In this document: positions 7,744 to 64,000 of the stretch, in pieces | Numbering within the stretch: position 1 is the stretch's first letter | Layout: each line of letters starts with the position of its first letter | Origin: Candidatus Aenigmatarchaeota archaeon | GTDB taxonomy: Archaea; Aenigmatarchaeota; Aenigmatarchaeia; GW2011-AR5 | Assembly: GCA_016187335.1 (NCBI GenBank) | Contig: JACPJW010000001.1 | Location: 404,170-468,169 of the forward strand | Direction: 5' to 3' | Length of the DNA stretch: 64,000 nt | Notes under the pieces: model-generated | Seen by the model: only the letters and a program-made list of their open reading frames with translations | Database searches by the model: none | Told to the model about the DNA's origin: nothing | Translations under genes and position numbers: made by a program

Positions 7744-7980
7744 TGGGAAGGGAGGGATTTCCAGAACTTTTCATCGTTTTCCTCGAAGAACATCAGTTCT
7801 TCGGTATCTCGGAGAACTATCGTTCTCCGCAGATGATCGAACTTTTCTGAAAAGTTCGTTTGGACCCTCGACATTCCCGGCGTAGCACCAATCAAGTGCT
7901 ATGCTCCACGGTCTTCAGCCGTGTGCTCTCCCAGGCTTTGCCAACCGAAAAAATCATTCTCGGTTTTGAGCTACCTTCCC
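7744..7980 (-). tRNA. tRNA-Phe (anticodon GAA) with three putative introns (D-loop, variable loop, T-loop)
   Basis: Minus-strand acceptor GGGAAGG/CCTTCCC with discriminator A; D-stem GCTC/GAGC with AGCCUGGGA loop; anticodon arm CACGG-CUGAAGA-CCGTG; exons sum to about 73 nt; T-loop junction uncertain. Confidence 0.5.
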
Positions 7981-8399
7981 ATGGATGGAAAATATACTTT
8001 TTTCGTTTTCAAAGCTTCCAACGCTATTTTTACCGGTTCGAAAAGCGGTTTAGGCAGATTTTTCAGGTCAAACCACTTAAGTTCGCTGATATTTTCTTTG
8101 TCGACAATCCTTGGCTTGCCGGATTTTATTTTCGCAGTAAATTCCACATCAACGTAGTGTTTTTTGCCGTATTTCATTATGTCGCTGATGCACAGCAGCC
8201 TTAGATTACCGACTTCAAGTCCGACCTCTTCCTTTACCTCTCTCTTGGCGCATTCTTCCAGCGTCTCGCCAAATTCAACATGGCCGCCGAACCCTGACCA
8301 TTCTCCTTCGCCGTGAGAGCCCTTTCTCCTGCCCAGCAAAATCTTGTTGCCCTGTATTATCTGGCATCCTACGCCTACCAGAGGCCTTTCCTTTCTCAT
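7971..8399 (-). CDS. NUDIX hydrolase
   Basis: Nudix box GGHVEFGETLEECAKREVKEEVG; start taken at the internal Met (MRKERPL) because the track ORF extends over an upstream tRNA. Confidence 0.75.
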   Translation of the reverse strand: MRKERPLVGVGCQIIQGNKILLGRRKGSHGEGEWSGFGGHVEFGETLEECAKREVKEEVGLEVGNLRLLCISDIMKYGKKHYVDVEFTAKIKSGKPRIVDKENISELKWFDLKNLPKPLFEPVKIALEALKTKKVYFPSMGR

Positions 8400-8402
8400 G
8401 AG

Positions 8403-8521
8403 CGCCCCGGGACGGACTCGAACCGTCGACCTTCTGCAATTAGTCAAGAAATCCAAAAACTTGCTTGACTGTTAACAGCCAGACGCTTTAGGCGTCTATC
8501 TACCTGCTGAGCTACCAGGGC
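8403..8521 (-). tRNA. tRNA, anticodon unresolved, with D-arm intron and a second 27-nt hairpin intron
   Basis: Minus-strand 5' GCCCTGG TAGCTCAGCAGGTAG and 3' GACGG-TTCGAGT-CCGTC-CCGGGGC-G; removing a 19-nt hairpin restores D-stem GAGC; two parses give 73-nt exons but neither yields a canonical anticodon loop. Confidence 0.5.
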
Positions 8522-8558
8522 ATGCGTAGAAATAATCTGAGAATTAATATTTAAAACG

Positions 8559-9407
8559 TTAGAAGAAAGGCCTTATTACAAGCGCGGTTCCTGCGATAAT
8601 GAACAATGCGCCAATGAGCCTTCTTATCAGGTCTCCTTCCTTGTGGAACAGGTATCCGCCGAGAACGCTTATGACAATGCTCATCTGAACTACTATGGCT
8701 ACGTTGCTCACGTCCGTCAAATTATACGCCGTTATCTGCGAGAAATACCCGGCGGCAGCCAGCAAAGAAACGGCTATCATAGGCATTTTCATCTTATGAA
8801 ATGAAGCCTTAACTCTGTCGGCCCTGCCAAGCGCGGCTGGGGTAAGTATCATTGTAGGAAAAAGAAATACGAGAAATCCGTAGAATGCCGGGGTGAAATA
8901 AGCCAGACCTGTTTTGTCGATTACCGCTACCAAGCCCATAAGAAATGCGTTAATCAAAGTCAGAATTATACCCTTCTTGGAAATCCTTTTCAGCGGGTCT
9001 TTGTGCCATGCAAGGATTACAGCGCCTATCAGCAGCAAAAAGACGCCGAGGAACTTGTTAATCGTTAGCGATTCCTTCAGAATCAGCATAGAAAATATCA
9101 GCGTGAATAAAACGCTGGTCTTGGACAGCGGATCCCTTACAGAAATATCAGTATGCTTGTAAGCTTCGAGGCCCGTCACGTTGGCCAAAACGTACAATGA
9201 ACTCGCAAGCAGGACAATCAGCCACGCAATGTAGCTGGGCGGGAAGCTGGCTTCCCTCACAAACAGGAGAAAAAAGAAAGCCGCTGAAAAGACGTTGAAG
9301 AACCATGCATACACTATGGTGTTTTCCGTCTTCATTATATGCTTCTGGACAAGATTCCCCGCGCCGTAGCAAAGAGCCGCGAAAAGCGCGAGCAGTTCCC
9401 ATGACAT
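8559..9407 (-). CDS. EamA/DMT-family membrane transporter
   Basis: 282 aa, about 10 predicted TM helices in two-repeat arrangement typical of drug/metabolite transporters. Confidence 0.75.
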   Translation of the reverse strand: MSWELLALFAALCYGAGNLVQKHIMKTENTIVYAWFFNVFSAAFFFLLFVREASFPPSYIAWLIVLLASSLYVLANVTGLEAYKHTDISVRDPLSKTSVLFTLIFSMLILKESLTINKFLGVFLLLIGAVILAWHKDPLKRISKKGIILTLINAFLMGLVAVIDKTGLAYFTPAFYGFLVFLFPTMILTPAALGRADRVKASFHKMKMPMIAVSLLAAAGYFSQITAYNLTDVSNVAIVVQMSIVISVLGGYLFHKEGDLIRRLIGALFIIAGTALVIRPFF

Positions 9408-9431
9408 TAGAATACCTTGAGAAACAGGCTT

Positions 9432-12146
9432 TTAATCCAGGAAATCGCCCTTCTTCAGCTTATTAGGAAGGTAGGTCTCGGACATGAACTTAAGGCCGCG
9501 GTGCGACAAAGCTTCTATCTCGGCTTTTATTCCTTTTTCTATCATCAGGTTGATTTCCTTCTTCCATCTCGGGTTCTTGCTAAACCACTCGTAGTTGAGT
9601 AGTTCCTTCGCGCGCTTTATGTCAACTTCCTTGCATTTTATTGTCGCTTTTTTCAGGTCATACTCAAATATATCCGATATAGTAAGACCTATGTATCTGG
9701 CTTCCGGTGTCGCAATCCGATCTGAGACGTGAGCTAGGCTTATGGATCCGGATTTGATAACTGAATAAATATAGAAGCCGTACGAATCACTGTCGCAGCA
9801 TACATATACAGGCAGCTTGTGATCTTGGTTCAGCCTTTGTATCAGCAGCCTTGTTCCGCGTGATGGCTGCCCGCCTGTGCCGATCAAAACGCACTTCTGT
9901 TTCTGCCAGAACTTGTCCTCATGAAGCCGCTCAAAGCCTGCGTTCTTCTCCACGACCAAGACAAAGTCCGCGTTGACTTTTTTGAAATCTATTTCATCCA
10001 CGGTGCTCGGTATGGACCATCCCCCGCTTCCGAGCTTTGACCAGTCTATGCTGTCGCCGCGGTCTTCAATAATAACGTTGCCGGCGACAATGCCCTTTCT
10101 GTCGGTGGTGAGGTGCAATTGCTCGCGCAGAACGTCTATAGCCACTTCTATGTCAACAATTATAGGGTCAGAATTATGTAGAATTATAAATCCATTACCA
10201 CCAATGAAATTCTCAGTAGGTTCGACTGAAAGATCAACTGTATATTCAGGAGTTGGAGCGTCATTTATTTCAACTATCTTGTCCCACATAATGTCACTAT
10301 TAGCTATGGTTTCAAGTTCGGATACCAGCTGTAAATCTGGAGAATACTTTTGTAACTGCATCAAGGCGTTATATAACACAGGTCTGCTTATCGATTCGTT
10401 TTTATTTTCTATATAACTCCATGAAAAGTGGTTCCATTCAACACGATCCTTACAGGACTTTCTGACTTTTTCTACCAATTTCCCTATGTTTGGTATCCTG
10501 TCAGAAGATACGTCGTGTTTCCGCGGCTTACTGAATCTTTTATCATTGATTATTTCAGCCATCAATTTTACATCTTCTCTATTACCTATTCTAATTTCAT
10601 ATGCGTTATGGTGATTAGGATTTTGGACGCTTCTTTTATAGCGATAAATTCTTGCAAAAATTCCAAGCCTAAGCAGTAAAAATACCAATCCGTTAGCCAG
10701 CTTTTCGCTAGTTGTGTGGTACCTTAATCTAAATTTTGGAAGAAAAGTACTACCGTCTCCAAGCATAAACGAGAAAAGAAACATCTGTATACAATTTTCA
10801 GGTGAATCAAGCAAAACACGCGGTATTTCTTTATTCCATGCTCTGCAAGGCTTATACCCAATAACATAAGTCAATATGTGACTCAAAGTATCGTAACCTA
10901 CATTTAGCTTATAAACTCCATCTTTACCTAAACGTATCTTTCCGCTTACACAGCTTTTACCAAATGATTTTTCAAAGCAAATCATAAACTGCTTGAGAAG
11001 CTCTGAAGATTTGTTAGAAATAGCTACATGGTATGATTTTCGTGGTTCAAAAAGTGAATGCGAGCCTTCGCTCAAAAGAAGCCCTAGTACAAATCCTAAA
11101 TTTTCATCTTTTTTTATTAAAGCGTTGTAATAGTTCTTTGCACCCCTTCTTCCAATTTTTATTTTAGGAAGCAGATCTGAAATATCAATTCCGGTCGTTT
11201 TTACGACTTTAATTGGAATTGTTTTCCAGTTAATCCAGTTGGCTTTAACGTCAGACCATACATTCTTGTATCCGAAGTCATTTGAAATATTTTTTAGCTT
11301 ATCATTACCTATAAGCCTGATTATTTCTTTTATCGTGTCTTTATCCGATTTTATGTAAAATTCTTTTAATACACTTTCAGGGCAATTTTCAATAAGCTTT
11401 TCTAAAATATTTATATGATCAGAATTAACACCGACTTCTATTTTTCTTGGGATGGCTATCCAGTCTCCTATCTTTAGTTCTGATGTTTTTATGGATACAG
11501 GTTTTCCTTCAGAATTTGTAAACAAGCTGTGAGATTTAGTTACTTTGACACGCCTGCCACTTGATGTGATTATTTCCTTTACAATGTTAGGCGGGTGTTT
11601 CATTACCATCAGAACTTTCTGCTCCTTAATCCTGTAATTTTCATCGAAAGCGCAAACCTTAATGTCGCCAACTAAAATCTTCTTTTTATTACCATCATCA
11701 TAAATAATTCTCCCAAATTTTTCAGCATGGTCTACGACTTCGCTTGCTTGAGCTATTCTGAGTTCATCGTTTATTCTTACCAACAAAGGTTCATCGGGGC
11801 ATACAGACTCGCTCTGCTCGTCAAAGGTATTCTCGTTGCTGTCCGGCAGTGTCCTTTTCAGGTTGTAGTACATGTCTCGGATGCTGGCATGGATTTTCTC
11901 ATCAATGAGCGATTTACAGAAAGCACCGACCATAAGCGTCTGCATGAACTTCTTGGAGTGCGCGACGTTGAAGTAATACCTTTTTGCTGTCTTGGTGCCA
12001 AGCCTGAGCTGGCCGGTTTTCCTGTCGTAAACTACGTTGGAAAGAGCGCGTATTGGTATCTCTATGTTCGGGTTCTCGCCTTTCTCTATGTCATGCACGA
12101 CTTTCTTGCCCAGAACATTCAGTTCCTTTCTTACGTCTTTTTCCAT
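9432..12146 (-). CDS. top6A: DNA topoisomerase VI subunit A (Spo11-like) interrupted by an intein
   Basis: 904 aa; extein N-part (IPIRALSNVVYD...RDMYY) and C-part (WSKLGSGGWSIPS, Toprim LIGTGGQPSRGTR) match Top6A; central 543 aa has intein/LAGLIDADG blocks. Confidence 0.85.
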   Translation of the reverse strand: MEKDVRKELNVLGKKVVHDIEKGENPNIEIPIRALSNVVYDRKTGQLRLGTKTAKRYYFNVAHSKKFMQTLMVGAFCKSLIDEKIHASIRDMYYNLKRTLPDSNENTFDEQSESVCPDEPLLVRINDELRIAQASEVVDHAEKFGRIIYDDGNKKKILVGDIKVCAFDENYRIKEQKVLMVMKHPPNIVKEIITSSGRRVKVTKSHSLFTNSEGKPVSIKTSELKIGDWIAIPRKIEVGVNSDHINILEKLIENCPESVLKEFYIKSDKDTIKEIIRLIGNDKLKNISNDFGYKNVWSDVKANWINWKTIPIKVVKTTGIDISDLLPKIKIGRRGAKNYYNALIKKDENLGFVLGLLLSEGSHSLFEPRKSYHVAISNKSSELLKQFMICFEKSFGKSCVSGKIRLGKDGVYKLNVGYDTLSHILTYVIGYKPCRAWNKEIPRVLLDSPENCIQMFLFSFMLGDGSTFLPKFRLRYHTTSEKLANGLVFLLLRLGIFARIYRYKRSVQNPNHHNAYEIRIGNREDVKLMAEIINDKRFSKPRKHDVSSDRIPNIGKLVEKVRKSCKDRVEWNHFSWSYIENKNESISRPVLYNALMQLQKYSPDLQLVSELETIANSDIMWDKIVEINDAPTPEYTVDLSVEPTENFIGGNGFIILHNSDPIIVDIEVAIDVLREQLHLTTDRKGIVAGNVIIEDRGDSIDWSKLGSGGWSIPSTVDEIDFKKVNADFVLVVEKNAGFERLHEDKFWQKQKCVLIGTGGQPSRGTRLLIQRLNQDHKLPVYVCCDSDSYGFYIYSVIKSGSISLAHVSDRIATPEARYIGLTISDIFEYDLKKATIKCKEVDIKRAKELLNYEWFSKNPRWKKEINLMIEKGIKAEIEALSHRGLKFMSETYLPNKLKKGDFLD
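10173..11801 (-). mobile_element. Intein with LAGLIDADG homing-endonuclease domain inside top6A
   Basis: Begins with Cys after ...DEQSESV, block B GRRVKVTKSHSLFT, LAGLIDADG-like LGFVLGLLLSEGS and FLFSFMLGDGS, ends GFIILHN followed by Ser; region is A/T-rich relative to exteins. Confidence 0.7.
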
Positions 12147-12184
12147 AGAATCACTTTCCCAAAATATGGTTCCATTCCGCTTTA

Positions 12185-13837
12185 CTATTCTTCTTCAGCT
12201 TCTTCAGGCTTTTCTTTTTTAGGGTTCGACTGCGCAGCCGCCAGCTGCGGCGGCTGGACCGTTTCCAGCTCTTCGAAATCTTTCATCTTGTTCTTGTTTT
12301 CTATTATGGACAGCAGCTTCTTTTCTATAACAGCATCCTTGTCGCCCGTGAGAACGGACAGCGACGAGGCAACCTCCTTTGCGTACCTTTCAAAAATCTG
12401 TATCCTGCGTTTCTGCTCGCCGGCGCGCCGCTTTCCCGAAAGGTAGCGGGACAGCTCACGTGCCGCGTCCTGTATTGCCAGCTTCATTTCCTTGACAATT
12501 TCCGGGTACGGCGCAATGGCTTCTTTGCTTTCCGAAACGAAGGGCACCCACACGGACGACATGTGTATTACGAGAATCATGGGGCCTGATGGCAGCGAGT
12601 TCTTCGGATGCTGCAAGCCATACCGCTTCCAGTCCACGTCCTTGGCAGCTTCCGTCGTTGCGCAAGCGCCTGCTTGGTAGAGAAGAGGCACCCTGTTTGC
12701 AATTCTTATCACGTCTATCTGCTCTTCCAAAGCGCCTACATTGCCGAAAACGATGCCGATTTCAATCTGGAAAGGCATGCCGCGATAAACTTCACTTTCC
12801 CTTCCAATCACGGTTATAAATTCAGCCTGCGGATATTCCTTTTTCAGGCTTTTCTCGAGCTCTGCTTTCCCTACAGGCGACAGGCAATCCAAAGGAGGCC
12901 TTTGTATCTTGACTTTCTGCATGGCGCTGAGCAGTTTTTCTATTCCCGCCCTGTCAAGCGCCTGGGGCTTTCCGTTCGGATCTATTTTTGCCGTTTTGCA
13001 TATTTCCTTTGCTGTCTGCGACCCCACGGAAGAGAACTCGTTTACAAGAAATGACTGCACGGTCTTTGAATTTGTTTTTGACAGGAACCGCTGCAGAATT
13101 CCGAACTCAACGCCGTAGGGGTGCATTCTCATTTCCTTCGGCGGCTTCGGGAGATCGTCAAAGCTCCTTGGAAATGCCATCTTTGTTCCGTCGGGGGCGT
13201 GATAATTTATCTTTGCGAAAGGGTTTGAGATGCTCGTCTGCTTGAGATAGTCGTCAACGCCCTGCGTTTTCCTGTAGCGCCCGACAACATCAATTTCAAC
13301 TTTAACGCCGCGCTCCAGCCCGTCTTCCAGCGTTTCTTCCTTCACGATTTCCGGCTCGTTCTTGCTTGTGTTGATAAAAAGCTCGTAGTAACTGACCTTT
13401 TTCTTTTCGTCGGTCCTGGACCATACCTTTGTGGGGGAGCCTGTTGTAAGCTGCGAATAGAGCACCACAGCGGAAATTCCTATGCCCTGCTGGCCTCTTG
13501 ACTGGCGAAGACGGTGGAACTTGCTGCCATAAAGCAGTTTTCCGAAAATTCTGGGCACTTGTTCTTTCACGATGCCCGGTCCGTTGTCCTGTACGGTCAC
13601 GCGGAAGCGGTCCTCCCCGGTCTGCTTTATTTTCACGTTGATGTCCGGCAGAATGCCTGCTTCCTCGCATGCGTCTAGGGAGTTGTCCACGGCTTCCTTT
13701 ACGGTCATCAGCAGCGCTTTTGTCGGGTTGTCAAAGCCCAAGAGATGCTTGTTTTTTTCAAAGAACTCGCTTATTGATATTTCCTTCTGCTCTTTAGCAA
13801 ACTCCTCAGCGGTTTTTTTCGGGGATTTGTCAGACAT
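12185..13837 (-). CDS. top6B: DNA topoisomerase VI subunit B (GHKL ATPase)
   Basis: 550 aa; Bergerat-fold motifs (EAVDNSLDA, DNGPGI, GQQGIG) and transducer domain; directly upstream of top6A. Confidence 0.9.
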   Translation of the reverse strand: MSDKSPKKTAEEFAKEQKEISISEFFEKNKHLLGFDNPTKALLMTVKEAVDNSLDACEEAGILPDINVKIKQTGEDRFRVTVQDNGPGIVKEQVPRIFGKLLYGSKFHRLRQSRGQQGIGISAVVLYSQLTTGSPTKVWSRTDEKKKVSYYELFINTSKNEPEIVKEETLEDGLERGVKVEIDVVGRYRKTQGVDDYLKQTSISNPFAKINYHAPDGTKMAFPRSFDDLPKPPKEMRMHPYGVEFGILQRFLSKTNSKTVQSFLVNEFSSVGSQTAKEICKTAKIDPNGKPQALDRAGIEKLLSAMQKVKIQRPPLDCLSPVGKAELEKSLKKEYPQAEFITVIGRESEVYRGMPFQIEIGIVFGNVGALEEQIDVIRIANRVPLLYQAGACATTEAAKDVDWKRYGLQHPKNSLPSGPMILVIHMSSVWVPFVSESKEAIAPYPEIVKEMKLAIQDAARELSRYLSGKRRAGEQKRRIQIFERYAKEVASSLSVLTGDKDAVIEKKLLSIIENKNKMKDFEELETVQPPQLAAAQSNPKKEKPEEAEEE

Positions 13838-13921
13838 TATTCCGGACTCCTAAGGTTTGAAAGTCGCCGAAACTTCTCTGAAGTTTCGTGCGAAATGCTT
13901 TTGCCTGCAATGCATTTTATT

Positions 13922-14416
13922 TTATACGAGGAGATGAATTCTTTTTATGCCAATGGATTTGTAAACACTTTTATGCGAGTGCCCTATAATTAATCTCTCA
14001 ACGGCGCCTCTGGCCTTTTCTGCATCCTCGTATCTGCCTATAATCGAGACAGTTCTGCCGTAAACGGATATGAACGTCTTCGTCATAATCTCTATGTTTT
14101 TTCTGGCCTTGCCTCTGGTTCCAATTATCCTTGAGCGAACCCTTTTTAATGCTTTTTCGTTTTTCGGAAGCGGTATCATGTCAAGGGTGTATTCCTCGTC
14201 CAGCAGGTACATGGACCTCTCAGGAGAAAACCCGCGCCCTATGGCCTTCACTATGTTTTCCGCGTTCATTACGCGGAGCGCATCGCCCTCTATTTCAACA
14301 TCTTCATTCACAGATATTTTTACTTCTGCAAGATTTTCTATCTCCTTTTTTACCAGGCCGCCTTTTCCTATCAGAACGGCAAGTCTCTCTTTTGGTATCT
14401 TGACAACCCTGAGCAT
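13922..14416 (-). CDS. KH-domain RNA-binding protein (Dim2/Pno1-like)
   Basis: 164 aa; two KH-like segments with GXXG loops (VLIGKGG, IIGTRG). Confidence 0.65.
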   Translation of the reverse strand: MLRVVKIPKERLAVLIGKGGLVKKEIENLAEVKISVNEDVEIEGDALRVMNAENIVKAIGRGFSPERSMYLLDEEYTLDMIPLPKNEKALKRVRSRIIGTRGKARKNIEIMTKTFISVYGRTVSIIGRYEDAEKARGAVERLIIGHSHKSVYKSIGIKRIHLLV

Positions 14417-14420
14417 AAAA

Positions 14421-14711
14421 TCACTCTACGAGAAGTATGCCTTTCCTTTTCAGCCACGAAGCCTCTGTGGGGTTGTATTTCCATATTATGTCGCCGCTTT
14501 TCTCTCCTTGCACGCTCCACGGCTCTACGAGGACGGCATCGTCCTTCCTTATCCATATCCTTTTTCTCAGCTTGCCCGGTATCCTGCATATCCGCATTCT
14601 GTTGTCCTGGCACCGGACCATGAGCTTGTTGGAGCCTAGCATGGATTCTACTATGCCCAAAACTTCCTTGCCCCTCGGGATCCTCACGCGGAATACAGGC
14701 TGCTCAACCAT
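14421..14711 (-). CDS. Translation initiation factor 1A (aIF-1A)
   Basis: 96 aa; S1-like OB fold signature (RCQDNRMRICRIPGKLRKRIWIRKDDAVLVEPW). Confidence 0.8.
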   Translation of the reverse strand: MVEQPVFRVRIPRGKEVLGIVESMLGSNKLMVRCQDNRMRICRIPGKLRKRIWIRKDDAVLVEPWSVQGEKSGDIIWKYNPTEASWLKRKGILLVE

Positions 14712-35903: not shown

Positions 35904-38900
35904 TTACTTTATTTTCTTTATCTCTATACCTATTTTCCTGCCTTCAAAGTCCAGTTTTTCCCCTTCCGCCTTCGCGAACACGACCTTCGCCGCCCCCACT
36001 TCGTTCTTTATTTCTTTTTCCCATTTCTTCAGTTCCCCGGCCCCTTCTATTTTCAAGGCAATTTTGTCCATGACAACAAGCCCTGATTTCTTGCGCATAT
36101 CCTGCACTTTTCTGACAACCTCGCGGAGCAGGGCCTCTTTTTTCAGCTCGTCGGTGAGCAGCGTGTCCAGTTCCAGCTTGCCGCCGTCAAAGGGAACGCC
36201 ATTGTTCGTGTTTGCAAAAACAGCGGCTTTGACATTGCACATATTCTTTATTATTTCTGCAAAAGGCTTGAGATTCTCTTTGCTGTCCACTGTAAGCTTT
36301 GCCAGGGGCCACCTTATTTTTATGTTGCTTTCATGCCTTTGCGAGTTGGATGCTTCGACAAGGTTTTTTACGATATTCATGGCTTTCTCCGCCTTTGCGC
36401 TGATGTATTTTGAATCGTACTTAGGCCAGTCCCTGGTATGCACGGATTCCTTTTCGCCGAGGATTTCGAGGTTTATCTGCTCGGCGAGATACGGCGTTAT
36501 AGGCGCTAAAAGCTGCGATGTTTTTTCTGCTATCTCGTATAAGGTGTAAAAGGCCGCTTCCTTGTCTTTCCCTGAATACGCCGGCCATACGCGGTCCCGG
36601 ATCAGCTTTATGTACCACCTTGAAAAGTCGTTTACTAGGAAATCATGCAGCTCTGTTACGGCCTTGTGGCCGTTGTAGCTGCAGAAATGCTGGGTGCAGT
36701 TCTTTATGGTGGTGTTCAGGCGCGAAAGAATCCATTTGTCCTCTATATTCAGTTTTTTTGGCATTGAACCGCTTGACGCGTCGGTCTGTTTCGGTTTTGT
36801 TGCGTAGGTCTTCACGAAATTAAAGCTGTTTTCTATCACAATAAGAGACCTCGCAATGGCTTCAACGTCCGGCCACTTGAAGTAGAAGTCATCCCACGGC
36901 GCGCTTGACAGCAGATAGAAGCGAAGCACGTCCCGGCCGTATTTTTTTATAATGTCCTCCGGCTCGACAATATTTCCTTTGCTCTTTGACATTTTCACGC
37001 CGTGAGCGTCAAGTATGAAGCCGTGGAAAAGTATGTTCGTGAAGGGCTTCTCATCAAATGTTATTACCGACGTTATCAGCTCGGCGTTCCACCAGCCTCT
37101 GATTTGATCCGGGCCTTCTGTCTGGAAGTCGCTTGGCCACAGTTTCTTGAACAACGCCTTGTTTTTCGGGTAGCCGAGGGATGCCCATCCGGCAAGGCCG
37201 GCGTCAAACCAGACATCAAGGACATCGGCTATCCGTTTCATCGCAGAGCCGCACCTGCATTTCAAAAAAACGTTATCAATGTAAGGCCTGTGCAAATCAC
37301 GGGGTATTTCCGGCAATTCGTCAGCGGAGCCGATGACCTTGACGCTTTCGCATTTCTCGCATATCCATATCGGCAGCGGTATGCCCCAGTAGCGCTGCCT
37401 TGATATAGGCCAGTCGCCGAGGTTTTCAAGCCAGTTGTTGAACCGTTGCTTTGCCCATTCAGGGTACCAGTTCACATTCTTGTTTTCCTTGATGAGCTTG
37501 TCCCTTATCTTCGTCACGCGGAAGAACCACTGCGACACGGATATCAGCAGCAGGGGAGTGCTGCAGCGCCAGCATTGCGGGTAGTCGTGCGTTATCGTTT
37601 CCTCCTTCAGCAGCAGGTCTTTTTCCTTCAGCAGTTCAATTATTTTTTTGTCGCTTGCCTTGACAGGATTTCCAGCAAAAGCACCGCATTTCTCGTCAAA
37701 AGTGCCGTTGATTTTCACCGGAGATATTATGGGCAATTTGTTTTCCAGACCGACTTTGTAGTCCTCCTGTCCGTGCCCGGGGGCGGTGTGGACAAGCCCG
37801 GTGCCGTCTTCCATGCTCACGTACTGCTCTGAAAGCACAACCTTGTGCGCGCCTTTGAGCTGCTGCTGGAATGTAAAAATGTCCCGGAGCGGATGCTCGT
37901 ATTCTGTCCCAGCCAGCTTTTTTCCGGGAAACGTTTCCACAATGCTGAATGGCAGTCCGGCTTTCTTCATAACAGCTTCAAGAAGCGGCTTTGCCAGGAT
38001 AAGAAATTCAGTTCCACCAGAACTTTCCACCATTACCTTGACATATTCGTGCTTCGGATGCGCCATGATGCCTGTATTAGCTGGTAACGTCCACGGCGTT
38101 GTCGTCCATATGACCAGGAACACGTTTTCTTGTCCTTTCACCGGAAACTTAACATAAATAGAAGGGTCCTTGGCTTTGCTGTATTCTATTTCGTTGTACG
38201 CAACGGCTGTTTCGCAATTATGTGTCAAGAAGCCGTTAGTTATAAAGTTGTGATGAGTTTCAACTGCTATATCACATACTTTCCGTTTCCCCTTATATTT
38301 TATAGAATTTATTTCATCCCAAATAAATCCGTCTCTGAGGTCTTTTGCAGCATTTTTTAACCATGCATCGAATGCAGGGGTATATTTGGCAGCACGAACT
38401 GACTTAGACTTGCCATAAACCACATGCCTTACATAAAGTTCAGGTAAGTTAAGCATAATTGCGATTTTGCTGCAAGGGATCTTAGAATGTCTTAGTGATA
38501 AGATCCTACCTTTCAATTTTCTGTATTGTTTCTCAAGTGATTTTTTGTACAGAAGATAGCCCAAAACATGCGAAGCCCTGATTTTTCTGTATTTACAGTA
38601 CTCGTATCCTAAATACCGTATGAATTTAATGAGGTTGTAATCGTTGCAATCTATACTGATAGTGGTCTTCGATTTTTCTATTTTATTAACAATATTTCTT
38701 TCTGTTTTTATTTCTCCTGTCGATACCCCAAACTTATTGATAAGCGCGCATATCTGTTTTGCAAATTCCATCCCGTTTTCTTCTAGATGTCTATTTTTTG
38801 TAAGGTAAAGCCTCAGGCATTCAAATCCCTTTCCATATTTTCTGGGGCTTATTATCTGGAGTTCGCTTCCGAAGTAAGATGCCAAAAATTCCCTTGTTAA

Positions 38901-40421
38901 TTTTTTATTGGACTTTATCCATTTTGGCACAAATGTCTTTGTTTCCGTCTTTTTTCCTATAGGACAGCCTAGCGTTATAAGCAAAACAGCCAAAGACAAA
39001 GAATAACATCTCATGGATGTTGTAAATCCCTTTATTGCTCTGCCATTTACGACAGATTTAGTTGGCACGGTTGAAATATCCGAATGGCTAAAGCCAAGAA
39101 TCTTTAGGTCTTTTTGGATTTCTTTTAAATCTTCCTCTTTTCCGCAGAAATCTATGCCAAATACCGGGAATTTTCTGTTTTTAGATGTACGTACAACAAT
39201 AGATCCATCACCAAAAATATGACCTGCCAATCTGGCTAAAATAAATGATTTTGTAGATTTACTGTGAAGAGGTATCAGTTCTTTATCTTTCAATTCATTT
39301 ATTATAGAATCGTAGCGCGTAAACGTATTTACTTTTAAAATTTTTGCTACCCATGATTTTGAAACTCTTATTTTGAAGGCGTTTTGTATTTCTTTAATAA
39401 TTTTAGTATATGAATAGTTATTTTTTCTAAGTTCGGCAACAAAGTTCTTAATTTTAATTTTCGAATGACTTGTAAGGTCGTTAAATTTATGCAGATCTCT
39501 GAAAACTATATTTTCTAAGTTCTGCAAAGTAAACATTACATTATTCTCATTTACAAGAGCTTTGCCTGTTTCCGTAATTTCCGGCAGTCTGCTTTCCACA
39601 TTATTATATACGGCCACTTTGGTTCCTATTCTGAGCTTAGAAAGAGTCATCCATCCATCTTGCGTCCAGAACGGATGATCACTCGAAGCGATTAGTTTCT
39701 TTCCTGTTAGCGTTTTTACAAGAAATACATTATCTTCCAATTCCACATAGCCCAGAGGTTTTGCCGTAGTTAGAAGTTTAGAATTAGTATCAACAGCTAC
39801 AACCGTGTTGTGTTTCCAGCAGCCTTTCAGTTCTCCTATTTTTCTTGTTCCCCCTTCAACAAGAATAGTAGAATTAGGATCAACGCATCTCGGGCATACA
39901 TGCACCGGATAAAGACCCTTGTAGAGCAGTCCCTTGTCGTAAGCGGTCTTGAACGTGTGCCACGCGCCCTCTATGTACTCGTTGTTGTACGTTATGTAAG
40001 GGTTGTCCCAGTCCATCCACACGCCAAGATTCAGGAACTGGTTATTCATGACAGAAATGAACTGGCTGACGAACGCCCTGCATTCCTTGTTGAATCTCTC
40101 GACGCCTAGCCTTTCTATATCAGCCTTTGATTTTATCTCCAGTTTTTGCTCGACCTTGTTTTCTATCGGCAGCCCGTGGGTGTCGTAGCCCGGCTGGTCC
40201 CATACGTCGAAGCCGGACATGCGCCAGAATCGGATGTAGCTATCCTTCAATATTTTGTTCCAGGCAGTGCCTATGTGTATGTAGCCCGTGGCGTAAGGCG
40301 GGCCGTCAAGGAAGTAGAATTTCTTCTTTCCTTTTCTTTTTGTCTTGGCCTTCTGGTAAATGCCGTCTTTTGCCCAGAACTCGGCGATTTCTTCTTCTTT
40401 TTTCTTGCGGCTTTCTATCAT
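35904..40421 (-). CDS. ileS: Isoleucyl-tRNA synthetase interrupted by an intein
   Basis: 1505 aa; HIGH (YIHIGT), KMSKS (KMSKSKGN), WPISRQRYWGIPLP; 557-aa insertion between CPR and CETA of the zinc-binding region. Confidence 0.9.
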   Translation of the reverse strand: MIESRKKKEEEIAEFWAKDGIYQKAKTKRKGKKKFYFLDGPPYATGYIHIGTAWNKILKDSYIRFWRMSGFDVWDQPGYDTHGLPIENKVEQKLEIKSKADIERLGVERFNKECRAFVSQFISVMNNQFLNLGVWMDWDNPYITYNNEYIEGAWHTFKTAYDKGLLYKGLYPVHVCPRCVDPNSTILVEGGTRKIGELKGCWKHNTVVAVDTNSKLLTTAKPLGYVELEDNVFLVKTLTGKKLIASSDHPFWTQDGWMTLSKLRIGTKVAVYNNVESRLPEITETGKALVNENNVMFTLQNLENIVFRDLHKFNDLTSHSKIKIKNFVAELRKNNYSYTKIIKEIQNAFKIRVSKSWVAKILKVNTFTRYDSIINELKDKELIPLHSKSTKSFILARLAGHIFGDGSIVVRTSKNRKFPVFGIDFCGKEEDLKEIQKDLKILGFSHSDISTVPTKSVVNGRAIKGFTTSMRCYSLSLAVLLITLGCPIGKKTETKTFVPKWIKSNKKLTREFLASYFGSELQIISPRKYGKGFECLRLYLTKNRHLEENGMEFAKQICALINKFGVSTGEIKTERNIVNKIEKSKTTISIDCNDYNLIKFIRYLGYEYCKYRKIRASHVLGYLLYKKSLEKQYRKLKGRILSLRHSKIPCSKIAIMLNLPELYVRHVVYGKSKSVRAAKYTPAFDAWLKNAAKDLRDGFIWDEINSIKYKGKRKVCDIAVETHHNFITNGFLTHNCETAVAYNEIEYSKAKDPSIYVKFPVKGQENVFLVIWTTTPWTLPANTGIMAHPKHEYVKVMVESSGGTEFLILAKPLLEAVMKKAGLPFSIVETFPGKKLAGTEYEHPLRDIFTFQQQLKGAHKVVLSEQYVSMEDGTGLVHTAPGHGQEDYKVGLENKLPIISPVKINGTFDEKCGAFAGNPVKASDKKIIELLKEKDLLLKEETITHDYPQCWRCSTPLLLISVSQWFFRVTKIRDKLIKENKNVNWYPEWAKQRFNNWLENLGDWPISRQRYWGIPLPIWICEKCESVKVIGSADELPEIPRDLHRPYIDNVFLKCRCGSAMKRIADVLDVWFDAGLAGWASLGYPKNKALFKKLWPSDFQTEGPDQIRGWWNAELITSVITFDEKPFTNILFHGFILDAHGVKMSKSKGNIVEPEDIIKKYGRDVLRFYLLSSAPWDDFYFKWPDVEAIARSLIVIENSFNFVKTYATKPKQTDASSGSMPKKLNIEDKWILSRLNTTIKNCTQHFCSYNGHKAVTELHDFLVNDFSRWYIKLIRDRVWPAYSGKDKEAAFYTLYEIAEKTSQLLAPITPYLAEQINLEILGEKESVHTRDWPKYDSKYISAKAEKAMNIVKNLVEASNSQRHESNIKIRWPLAKLTVDSKENLKPFAEIIKNMCNVKAAVFANTNNGVPFDGGKLELDTLLTDELKKEALLREVVRKVQDMRKKSGLVVMDKIALKIEGAGELKKWEKEIKNEVGAAKVVFAKAEGEKLDFEGRKIGIEIKKIK
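38217..39887 (-). mobile_element. Intein with LAGLIDADG homing-endonuclease domain inside ileS
   Basis: Starts CVDPNSTILVEGG, contains ILARLAGHIFGDGSI, ends FLTHN followed by Cys; A/T-rich relative to exteins. Confidence 0.7.
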
Positions 40422-40600
40422 CGTTGAACACCGGAAAATACCATAACGGAAAGAAAAGGGAAATCCCAGGCATAACCTTTCTTTTCCGCCTTAATTACCC
40501 TTTTAAACCTAACTCTGTTGCTTAATTTTTTAAGCATTGAATGGTACTCTTATTAATCAAAGCCAGTGAGGTCATGTAGTCAGTTCTCGATGGTGCTTTC

Positions 40601-61395: not shown

Positions 61396-61547
61396 AAATT
61401 CGTTTTCTGTGTAATGTTTTTGCCTTACTAGTTTTCTGGAAACCTATATATTGCGCTTCTCACAAATCTATTGCAGAACAAAGTTTCTGCAATTTGTGAA
61501 ACTATGGTTCCACAGTATTGCAGTTAGTCGTAACTATCTGTGGTAAA

Positions 61548-64000
61548 GATGACGCTTATACTAAGAATAAACGGGCATAACGTTGCAATAGCCCCGGGCG
61601 CTCCTTATCCGACAGGGGCGTTTCCGCCCGCAGGAGTTGTTTTGCCTGCCGGCGAGCAGGAGCTGGATTTTTATTGCGAAGTCCAGACTGGCGGTCCAGG
61701 TGCTATTCCTGCCGGCTACGGTGGAAACTGGTTCTTTAATTTCTTTTCAGTGGACGACGGGATTTCCATAAATCCCAATCCCGAAACTCCAAGGCCGACA
61801 AACGCTGTGAAATTCAAGGCAAAACTGAAGCCCGGGGCTCACCAGATACTTGTAAGGGTTCAGGGAAGCCTGAGATTGCCGGCAGGGTACCCTCCTGTTG
61901 AATACGTCATGTTAACAATAACAATCCCGCCGCCGATAACGACATTGACAGTCAAAATAAAAAGCCCTGAAAACAATTCCAACGTAGTCCTAAAAAGAAC
62001 TCCTGCAGGACTGCCTTATCACGACCCCCTGAATTTTCAGTGCGAAATAAAAGGCGGAAGGTCTCCTTACATTGTCAGATGGTTTTCATATTCTGAATCA
62101 AATTTTAATGTATACACCGTGTCCAAAATACTCGTACACGAGGAAACGACAAAAAGCGGTTCTGTATCTTTTTCGCGCGGAGGAGAAGAATACCCGGTTC
62201 CTGCAAAGACGCTTCCACCTCCTCCAGCGCTACCTCCACCGTTTCCACCGCCTCCGGATCCAAAAATTCCGTTCAGCCTGCTTGAAGGCAGGCATACAAT
62301 TAGTGTAAACGTAGTAGATTCAACTGCGCCTGCGCCAATAACAGTCGGTGATATGGTCAATATCACGGTGAGCACGGAGCCTAAAAAAGCAGGAGACATA
62401 CTTCCGGGCGGCGACGAAAGCCTGGGAGGCGCTGCCCGCGGCAGGGAAGGCATGGGGCTTGCGGGCCTTCCCGGAATCAGGAAAAGGCTCGGCAAAGAAG
62501 TGGGAAGGCTTGACTGGTCAAAGCGTGCGGCAAATCCTGCATTGCGCTCAGCTATCAACAGAGGCAAGAAACTGCTTGACCAGGCGACCAATGCCGCTTA
62601 CTACAGGCTCTTTGATGGCCCCGGCGGCGTCCAGCAAAGGCAGCAAAGAAGAATACGGGAGCTTGAGGACGCGAGAAAGGATTACGAAGCATCGATGAAC
62701 TCACTGAGAAAATATTTCCGGAAATACAAGATAAAGGCAGGCGTTCCGTTGCTCGTGACGGCAAGGATGGCATCCGCTCAGGACCTGACGAACATTGCAA
62801 ACACGATTGCGCAGGAGCAGCCCGCGCTTCAGGCGCAGATGCAGGAGCACCAGAACGCAATAAAAAGATACCTTGAGCTGCGGGACAAATTCGACGAGAC
62901 TTCCGAAAACGAAATTGATAAAGCAGGCAAGGAGCTTCAGGAATATGCAAAGCAAAGGGCAGGAACCTTTGCAACAAGGCTCGGATACCAGTACGGATTC
63001 CCTGCTAACCCTCCCGATGAAAGAAACGCCCTGAAAACCGAGCTTGAACAATACGCTGTTGATATTGCAGAAGAATTCCTGAGGCGCGGAAGGTCAAAAT
63101 TTTTTGCAGCGGCGAGGTTCATGCGCCGCGTCGGACTGGGAACGGAAACAATCGCAGAAAGTTATTATAACGTTATCCGCAGCCTGTGGGACCTGATAAC
63201 CGGTCCTTGGACAATCGCGTGGCTTTTCGTGGTTGCGCAGTTTTACTTCTCCTTGAGCTACATAGGCTACCAGCCTACCCTGTTGTTCACCATGCCGGCC
63301 GGCGGCGCCGTGATGATGTTCCTCATGAACTTTTCGCAGATAAAACGGCCTCTTGACGGCGTCACGCACGCGGGCGTCGGAGCGCTCTTAGGTCAGGGCA
63401 TCATAATCTTCATGTTCGCCCTGGGCATCACGCCGAACCTCTGGGGATGGGGATGGTTCGTTGGAATATGGTTCATCTTCGGCACCATAGGCGCGTTTGA
63501 GTTCTATCCCGTCGGCGGACCGCAGATAATGTTCCAGACAGCCGTGCTTGTCATCATTTTCGGCTACATAGCACTCGGCCCTTACAAGGGCTACTGGGAA
63601 CTTGTAAAAGACCAGCTGAGGGCGCCTTTGTACACCATGTACGTATCTATGAAAAACGCCGTCAATGACGTCTGGCTGCTGGCTACAAACCCCACTGCCT
63701 GGTACGCGAAGCAGCAGGTTATCAATGTCCGGCCCGAGCAGCCCATATCGTTCCCCGTGGAGATAGAAACGCCTGTTTTTGAAGGCCTGCCGCCGTCAGC
63801 GCCGGCAGGCACAGCTTTCTCCGTATCAATAGTTACGAAAAACAGCGGCAAGCTTGACGCGAAGAACATTGTCATAGAGCACGCATGCAACGAGTGGTGC
63901 GAGAACAGGGGCGCAATCGTGCCTGATGCATATCCGCTGCTGCATCCCGGAGAAAGCCAGGCGTTCTTCATGCAGAAGTTCGCAGCAAAGAAAGCCACGG
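61548..64000 (+). CDS. Large membrane protein, partial (runs off window end)
   Basis: Hand-translated open frame from ATG near 61548 with no stop to window end: N-terminal domain, proline-rich PPPPALPPPFPPPPDP segment, coiled-coil region, then several TM helices. Confidence 0.45.

Follow-up and report, generated by a model that had tools for sequence, protein, structure and literature searches.

The stretch of DNA analyzed here (hereafter the window) comprises 64,000 nucleotides of contig JACPJW010000001.1 (positions 404,170 to 468,169; assembly GCA_016187335.1), assigned to a Candidatus Aenigmatarchaeota archaeon. It carries a gene whose product is identical to an NCBI entry named 'hypothetical protein HYW26_02500, Candidatus Aenigmarchaeota archaeon' (P0001). 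Judged by its sequence, the gene encodes subunit A of topoisomerase VI (Top6A), which cuts the DNA, in an uncultured DPANN archaeon (Aenigmarchaeota). It is interrupted by a large insert that the first-pass annotation of the window had read as a LAGLIDADG intein. The positions of the gene, of the intein and of its parts are collected in Table 1.

Table 1. Features of the Top6A locus and the second intein of the window (positions are those of the window; intein residues are counted from Ser1, i.e., Ser114 of the precursor)
Feature	Position	Strand	Remarks
Top6A precursor, coding sequence	9432..12146	-	904 aa plus stop; single 2715-nt open frame
N-extein	11808..12146	-	aa 1-113, ends ...NTFDEQSE; holds the catalytic Tyr94 of the 5Y-CAP domain
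Catalytic Tyr94	11865-11867	-	second Tyr of RDMYY; aligned with S. shibatae Tyr106
C-extein	9435..10172	-	aa 659-904, from Ser+1, SDPIIVDIEV...
Toprim Glu733	9948-9950	-	in VVEKN; intact, in the C-extein
Toprim DxD, residues 785-787	9786-9794	-	DSD; intact, in the C-extein
Top6B partner	12185..13837	-	550 aa; Pfam Topo-VIb_trans and HATPase_c; without intein
Top6A intein	10173..11807	-	precursor aa 114-658; 545 aa, Ser1 to Asn545
Hint N-lobe	11433..11807	-	intein residues 1-125; beta-rich; aligns to PI-PkoII and TFIIB mini-inteins
Block A, SVCPDEPLLVRI	11772-11807	-	intein residues 1-12; Ser1
Block B, GRRVKVTKSHSLFT	11517-11558	-	intein residues 84-97; Thr90, His93
First helical insert, Hint N-lobe to endonuclease	11133..11432	-	intein residues 126-225; secondary structure from the AlphaFold2 model
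LAGLIDADG endonuclease core	10542..11132	-	intein residues 226-422; two-fold alpha/beta; Pfam LAGLIDADG_3, Foldseek I-DmoI
Block C, LGFVLGLLLSEGSH	11058-11099	-	intein residues 237-250; first LAGLIDADG motif, Glu247 (LLLSE247G)
Block D, RAWNKEIPRVLL	10809-10844	-	intein residues 322-333; Lys326
Block E, FLFSFMLGDGST	10746-10781	-	intein residues 343-354; second LAGLIDADG motif, Asp351 (MLGD351G)
Block H, LANGLVFLLLRLGIFARI	10647-10700	-	intein residues 370-387
Second helical region, endonuclease to Hint C-lobe	10299..10541	-	intein residues 423-503
Hint C-lobe	10173..10298	-	intein residues 504-545; TIGR01443 above cutoff
Block F, EYTVDLSVEPTENFIGG	10197-10247	-	intein residues 521-537; Asp525
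Block G, NGFIILHN	10173-10196	-	intein residues 538-545; His544, Asn545, then Ser659 (+1)
Second intein	38217..39887	-	about 557 aa, inside the open reading frame 35907..40490 (-)

The host gene is recognized by the NCBIfam equivalog model for Top6A (NF003333), which matches the precursor in two stretches with 482 bits (cutoff 465). The Pfam family TP6A_N covers aa 65-114 with positions 1-42 of its 62 profile positions, the match stopping exactly at the insertion, and beyond the insert follow Topo_VI_alpha (aa 686-724) and TOP6A-Spo11_Toprim (aa 728-897, 208 bits). All features expected of a Top6A/Spo11 protein are present, i.e., the tyrosine of the 5Y-CAP domain, the Toprim glutamate and DxD motif, and a Top6B partner, whose gene has the same orientation and lies upstream, 38 nt before the start codon of Top6A. 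Tyr94 is the residue that, from established knowledge and the alignment with the S. shibatae enzyme, we take to be catalytic. The insertion point is located 19 residues past it, within F-[DE]-[DE]-Q-x-E-S-D-P-I-I-V-D, a conserved motif of the 5Y-CAP domain; inteins typically sit in such highly conserved, functionally critical motifs. Without the insert, the protein can be aligned over its full length to Top6A of S. shibatae (2zbk_A, E 2.8e-89), M. jannaschii (1d3y_A) and M. mazei (2q2e), and the two flanks are continuous against 2zbk_A and 1d3y_A, in agreement with the first-pass statement that the extein resumes with sequence aligning to uninterrupted Top6A.

The insert itself has the profile matches of an intein with an endonuclease, well outside what chance would give. 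The Pfam family Intein_splicing (PF14890) reaches 85.4 bits (E 4.6e-24; cutoff 35.8) and LAGLIDADG_3 62.1 bits in two stretches (E 6.2e-17; cutoff 22.5), and the NCBIfam models for the two intein ends match as well (intein_Nterm, TIGR01445, 28.9-29.5 bits, cutoff 24.5; intein_Cterm, TIGR01443, 21.4-23.5 bits, cutoff 15.6); numerous models of archaeal proteins with inteins give partial matches. Each of the eight canonical intein blocks (A, B, C, D, E, H, F, G) can be assigned to a segment of the insert. The two LAGLIDADG-like blocks reported by the first-pass annotation are blocks C and E, and the blocks A, B, F and G, whose absence it had named as a refutation, are all there, so that its reading survives. 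We aligned 28 Top6A proteins that carry an intein at this site, 26 of which contain it in full length. Glu247, Lys326, Asp351, Asp525 and Asn545 are invariant, His544 is found in 27 of the 28 sequences, and Ser1, His93 and His544 are each conserved to at least 90%. The TxxH motif of block B (Thr90-Lys-Ser-His93 in the window intein) has its histidine in all 26 covering sequences and its threonine in 25 (SxxH in P0010).

An AlphaFold2 model of the intein, built on the 28-sequence alignment, was obtained with a mean predicted local distance difference test score (pLDDT) of 93.2 and a predicted template modeling score (pTM) of 0.93. In a Foldseek search of the PDB, its best match was PI-PkoII, the T. 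kodakarensis DNA polymerase intein 2 (2cw7/2cw8), with E 1.2e-36 and a template modeling (TM) score of 0.70; PI-PkoII is also the best match by sequence (2cw7, E 8.7e-27, three stretches covering all domains). Both proteins consist of a Hint N-lobe, an accessory region, a two-motif LAGLIDADG core, a second accessory region and a Hint C-lobe, they have similar lengths (537 aa in PI-PkoII vs 545 aa), and both end in HN. Nevertheless, PI-PkoII is a different allele, as it shares only ~20% identity with the window intein and interrupts a family-B DNA polymerase at another site and in another lineage. The Hint part of the model also superimposes on the mini-inteins 5o9i, 4o1s, 2lqm and 6rpp (root-mean-square deviation 1.6-2.9 over ~120 columns), and the endonuclease part on the endonuclease domains of PI-PkoII and PI-PfuI and on I-DmoI (target TM 0.63-0.74). 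I-DmoI is likewise a pseudo-dimeric monomer with two motifs, but it is free-standing, encoded by an intron and lacks a Hint domain. Further bifunctional inteins combining Hint and LAGLIDADG domains, namely TliVMA/PhoVMA (7qss, 7qst), PI-PfuI (1dq3) and PI-SceI (1vde), were retrieved by fold with E values of 2e-28 to 1e-8 (VMA inteins by sequence with E 1e-17); they differ from the window intein in their hosts and in the size and position of their accessory domains, at 10-20% identity. The helical insert of residues 126-225 is probably an accessory DNA-binding region, by analogy to PI-PfuI and PI-PkoII.

We read the element, with a probability of about 0.9, as a class-1 intein of canonical build that contains a two-motif LAGLIDADG homing endonuclease, lying in frame between Glu113 and Ser+1 and predicted to splice with Ser114 as its residue 1. 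The nucleophile at residue 1, the TxxH motif, the block F aspartate, the terminal His-Asn, the serine at +1, the Hint fold and the restoration of the frame are all found, and so are the two acidic-ended helices and the alpha-beta-beta-alpha-beta-beta-alpha twofold core (order taken from the AlphaFold2 model, and Foldseek) of a two-motif LAGLIDADG enzyme. A class 2 or class 3 mechanism was rejected. In these classes the nucleophile at position 1 is missing, and class 3 inteins use a Trp-Cys-Thr triad with a cysteine in block F; here, position 1 is an invariant serine and block F contains no cysteine.

The endonuclease is probably active at present. If so, the freed 545-aa intein, or the precursor, would act as a site-specific endonuclease with Glu247 and Asp351 as metal ligands. 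Its predicted homing target is the intein-less top6A allele around GACGAGCAGAGCGAG^TCTGACCCTATAATTGTTGAC (as one intein-free sequence, TTTGACGAGCAGAGCGAGTCTGACCCTATAATTGTTGAC), and repair of the cut allele from the intein-bearing copy by gene conversion would spread the element; cleavage may follow splicing or proceed parallel to it. The mean pairwise identity of the LAGLIDADG core (50.3%) equals that of the Hint N-lobe (50.3%) and is close to that of the exteins (53.3%); the least conserved parts are the helical region of residues 423-503 (32%) and the helical insert of residues 126-225 (39%). Furthermore, the complete orthologous inteins are all of full size (534-548 aa, 26/26), and no mini-intein derivative was found among them. 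The lack of mini-inteins and a core conserved to the same degree as the Hint N-lobe suggest that the endonuclease has remained under selection.

Orthologous inteins, 35-71% identical to that of the window, occur in Aenigmarchaeota, Woesearchaeota, Iainarchaeum/Diapherotrites, Altiarchaeales and other archaea. Their presence is polymorphic between close relatives: the nearest intein-free neighbor of the exteins is 92% identical for the window allele, 98% for P0003 (P0065) and 99% for P0004 (P0169). As near-identical exteins thus differ in the intein, its gain or precise loss must have been recent relative to the divergence of the hosts. A second copy of the Top6A intein was not found among the six-frame open reading frames of the window (phmmer).

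Several points weigh against an element that moves by homing. The divergence of inteins and of exteins is correlated (Spearman 0.67), pairs with an intein more similar than the extein are few, and no intein in the databases comes closer than 71% identity. From these sequences the history of the element looks mostly vertical or confined to exchange between close relatives. Moreover, decay does occur in this intein family, since 12 residues just behind the second LAGLIDADG motif are missing from the orthologue P0007, and P0019 ends in L-P-N, a proline replacing the penultimate histidine. The low GC content described below is of no help either, as it may be due to relaxed codon selection instead of a recent arrival. 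The correlation, the lack of a near-identical intein elsewhere and endonuclease lesions such as that of P0007 would fit a splicing-competent intein whose endonuclease is inactive and which is a vertical resident, occasionally lost and without homing, as would its rarity: a scan of the 185,579 species genomes of GTDB with two peptide patterns gave only 5 loci, which is a lower bound. We regard such a resident as unlikely, if by some distance the best of the alternatives, given that Glu247, Asp351 and Lys326 are invariant, that the core has been kept as well as the splicing domain and never lost to a mini-intein, and that exteins of 98-99% identity differ in intein presence, which precise loss alone explains poorly. 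Note that the lesions in P0019 and P0007 are possible cases of declining splicing efficiency and of a decaying endonuclease, respectively.

The insert is more A/T-rich than the host gene, as the first reading of the sequence had it. Its G+C content (GC) is 0.347 and that of third codon positions (GC3) 0.303, vs 0.473 and 0.603 for the exteins; the background, calculated from all 1635-nt segments of the 64 kb, has a mean of 0.463 and a standard deviation of 0.03. Only one non-overlapping segment out of 5910 was as low in GC, and it corresponds to a second intein of the window (GC 0.348), located in a gene for an isoleucyl-tRNA synthetase (IleRS)-like protein. GC and GC3 are also below those of the exteins for the orthologous inteins in four loci of other genomes. 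We do not take the low GC to prove that the element arrived recently by horizontal transfer, the orthologous inteins and the unrelated IleRS intein being biased as well. The A/T bias characterizes the element family as a whole and the two inteins of this genome, and relaxed codon selection on a selfish sequence explains it equally well.

The boundaries of the intein had been given as a 543-residue insertion (10173-11801) that begins with the cysteine after DEQSESV and ends with HN before a serine. The precursor reads ...NTFDEQSESV-CPDEPLLVRI...NGFIILHN-SDPIIVDIEV..., so that the downstream edge stands, and the stretch from Cys116 to Asn658 does comprise exactly 543 codons. The upstream edge has to be moved by two residues to Ser114 (window position 11807), making the insert 545 aa. 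With Cys116 as its first residue, the intein would leave two extra residues in the spliced Top6A (...DEQSESV-SDP..., i.e., DEQSESVSDPIIVD). Cysteine is the commonest intein nucleophile, and it occupies this column in 17 of the 26 complete orthologues; the other nine have Thr (3), Ser (2), Ala (2), Asp (1) or His (1), which cannot all be nucleophiles, and a column as variable as this is therefore not that of the catalytic nucleophile. Ser114, in the context E-S-[V/I/L], is present in 26/26. The apparent 'first residues' Ala, Asp, His or Thr of the orthologues are thus due to a misplaced boundary, and the puzzle disappears with the start at Ser114.

Intein-free relatives lead to the same start. 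Among its 120 best database matches, the spliced extein has only proteins that lack an intein (355-381 aa, 79-92% identical), and in each of the 109 that the pattern could parse, a single S or T stands between DEQxE and DP (DEQxE-[S/T]-DP); none has two additional residues. The 361-aa splice product implied by Cys116 requires a 2-residue gap against both S. shibatae and M. jannaschii Top6A. If, on the other hand, 545 codons are removed, the coding sequence measures 1080 nt, exactly the length of the intein-free gene at positions 3738-4817 of L001, a syntenic locus from the metagenome-assembled genome of another member of the Aenigmarchaeota (GCA_016198625.1; its Top6A, P0053, is the closest intein-free allele); the two align without gaps at 81% nucleotide and 92% amino acid identity. 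The 359-aa splice product has the same length and register as the intein-free alleles. Finally, PI-PkoII and the profiles set residue 1 at Ser114, too. In the phmmer match to PI-PkoII, the proline after the cysteine pairs with Pro4, so that SVCP represents residues 1-4, and the start S-V-C-P-D-E-P of the window intein runs in register with Pro4-Glu5-Glu6 of PI-PkoII; PI-PkoII and the Thermococcales Pol inteins start with S-I-L-P-E-E. In the whole-protein match to TIGR01445, residue 117 corresponds to profile position 4, placing position 1 at residue 114, and the alignment to NF011491 begins at residue 114. A start at Cys116 was consequently ruled out by the variable column, the invariant Ser114, the intein-free relatives and the 1080-nt match, and we consider it very improbable.

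On the coding (minus) strand, the two junctions share four bases, GAG/TCTG TATGC (11804..11807) and ...CATAAT/TCTG ACCCT (10169..10172), which leaves an uncertainty of up to 4 nt in the insertion point at the DNA level. A further observation concerns residue 3 of the intein (window 11799..11801), where cysteine is preferred among the orthologues although it is non-catalytic and lies beside the scissile bond.

From standard intein chemistry we infer the following course of splicing. In the folding precursor, the Hint lobes (residues 1-125 and 504-545) would bring the two junctions together, and Ser1 would undergo an N-O acyl shift, to which Thr90 and His93 of block B contribute. Ser+1 would then attack the resulting ester (transesterification), and cyclization of Asn545, helped by His544 and Asp525, would free the intein. 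After an O-N shift to a normal peptide bond, the mature Top6A of 359 aa (...DEQSE-SDPIIVD...) could pair with Top6B. That the insert does not splice at all, and is a permanent domain, a disrupted pseudogene or a chimera of what is, after all, a metagenome assembly, is hardly credible: the 2715-nt frame is open, the splicing residues are all conserved across orthologues of 35-71% identity, a 545-aa block in the CAP domain 19 residues from the tyrosine would very probably disable the enzyme, and the identical protein is found on 4 contigs (the longest of 918 kb) in three sources (NCBI, NCBI nr and Logan assemblies), besides ~28 orthologues from separate projects.

Two further insertion sites exist in Top6A of relatives outside the window. 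At site b (P0026, P0036, P0037, P0038), which reads ...DA[ED]FVL/C[VL]P...HN/C[VI]EKNA... (slashes mark the junctions), the intein is inserted one residue before the catalytic glutamate of the Toprim domain, and the cysteine at +1 replaces the usual valine; removal of these inserts results in exteins of 354-359 aa. At site c (P0029-P0035), ...TDAD/SIP...FHN/SYGWYIY..., it follows directly after the Toprim DxD motif, with serine at both residue 1 and +1. P0008, with an intein at the site found in the window (site a), and P0030, with an intein at site c, have exteins that are 94% identical. None of the 39 retrieved intein-bearing Top6A proteins is long enough to contain two inteins. The examples that carry names come from DPANN-type lineages (Aenigmarchaeota, Woesearchaeota, Iainarchaeum/Diapherotrites, Altiarchaeales). 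It is conceivable, though quite improbable, that Top6A is an intein host not described before, with three insertion hot spots each beside catalytic chemistry, and that slow or condition-dependent splicing makes the Ser1/Ser+1 intein a post-translational gate on topoisomerase VI; the three-site distribution is observed, and the evidence neither supports nor opposes a regulatory role. Such a gate presupposes that topoisomerase VI is the main type II topoisomerase of the cell.

The second intein of the window lies in a frame of 1528 codons encoding the class I aminoacyl-tRNA synthetase mentioned above (IleRS-like; tRNA-synt_1 with 407 bits, Anticodon_1, DUF5915). This frame came to light only because a helicase with an intein, used as a query, matched it weakly (E 1.8e-13), and Pfam then revealed a Hint domain (Intein_splicing, 58 bits). 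The insert splits the CPRC zinc-knuckle motif (...HVCPR/CVDPNST...GFLTHN/CETAVAY), and its GC compares with 0.488 for the remainder of the gene. No Pfam LAGLIDADG family matches it; LARLAGHIFGDGSI resembles one motif.

The window (7971..14711, minus strand) shares the order eIF-1A, KH-domain protein, Top6B, Top6A with L001, where a NUDIX gene follows further downstream of Top6A. From this order, the open reading frame 7971..8456 was taken as the putative NUDIX counterpart in the window. Between it and Top6A lies a 282-codon open reading frame (8559..9407, minus strand); the matching stretch of L001 (~900 nt) has no called gene. Elsewhere in the window, the open reading frame 61534..63999 (plus strand; 822 codons, running past the window end) matches no Pfam family at E <= 0.001.

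Inteins are biased towards replication and topology proteins and are documented in TopA, GyrA/B and reverse gyrase. For topoisomerase VI, an intein allele of Top6B is known from Halobacteria and other archaea (Soucy et al. 2014, PMC4071816), and a passage of Novikova et al. (2016, PMC4760082) counts 15 intein cases in Top6B. There, the same enzyme has been invaded in its other subunit, whereas here it is the A subunit that bears the intein and Top6B is free of it. Inteins were also removed from 'several' Top6A/Top6B sequences in another study (PMC9348778). A published description of a Top6A intein was not found in the searchable full-text literature; it may be listed in InBase or in the supplement of Novikova et al. 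Automated JGI annotation labels some orthologues 'DNA topoisomerase VI subunit A/intein/homing endonuclease', and GenBank names orthologues 'LAGLIDADG family homing endonuclease'. The element is an intein of an ordinary type, and the modest news lies in its host gene and in the correction of its start by two residues.

For annotation and intein catalogues the Top6A intein is useful, even if it will not surprise the specialist. The current names ('hypothetical protein', 'LAGLIDADG family homing endonuclease') hide the catalytic subunit of topoisomerase VI, whose mature form would have 359 aa. The case also illustrates that choosing the nearest cysteine as residue 1 of an intein can mislead; conservation among orthologues and intein-free alleles gave the true start. 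The endonuclease, a LAGLIDADG enzyme whose predicted target is defined and conserved, is a candidate rare-cutting nuclease. With this intein, the A subunit of topoisomerase VI joins the list of intein-invaded replication and topology proteins, in the poorly studied DPANN archaea.

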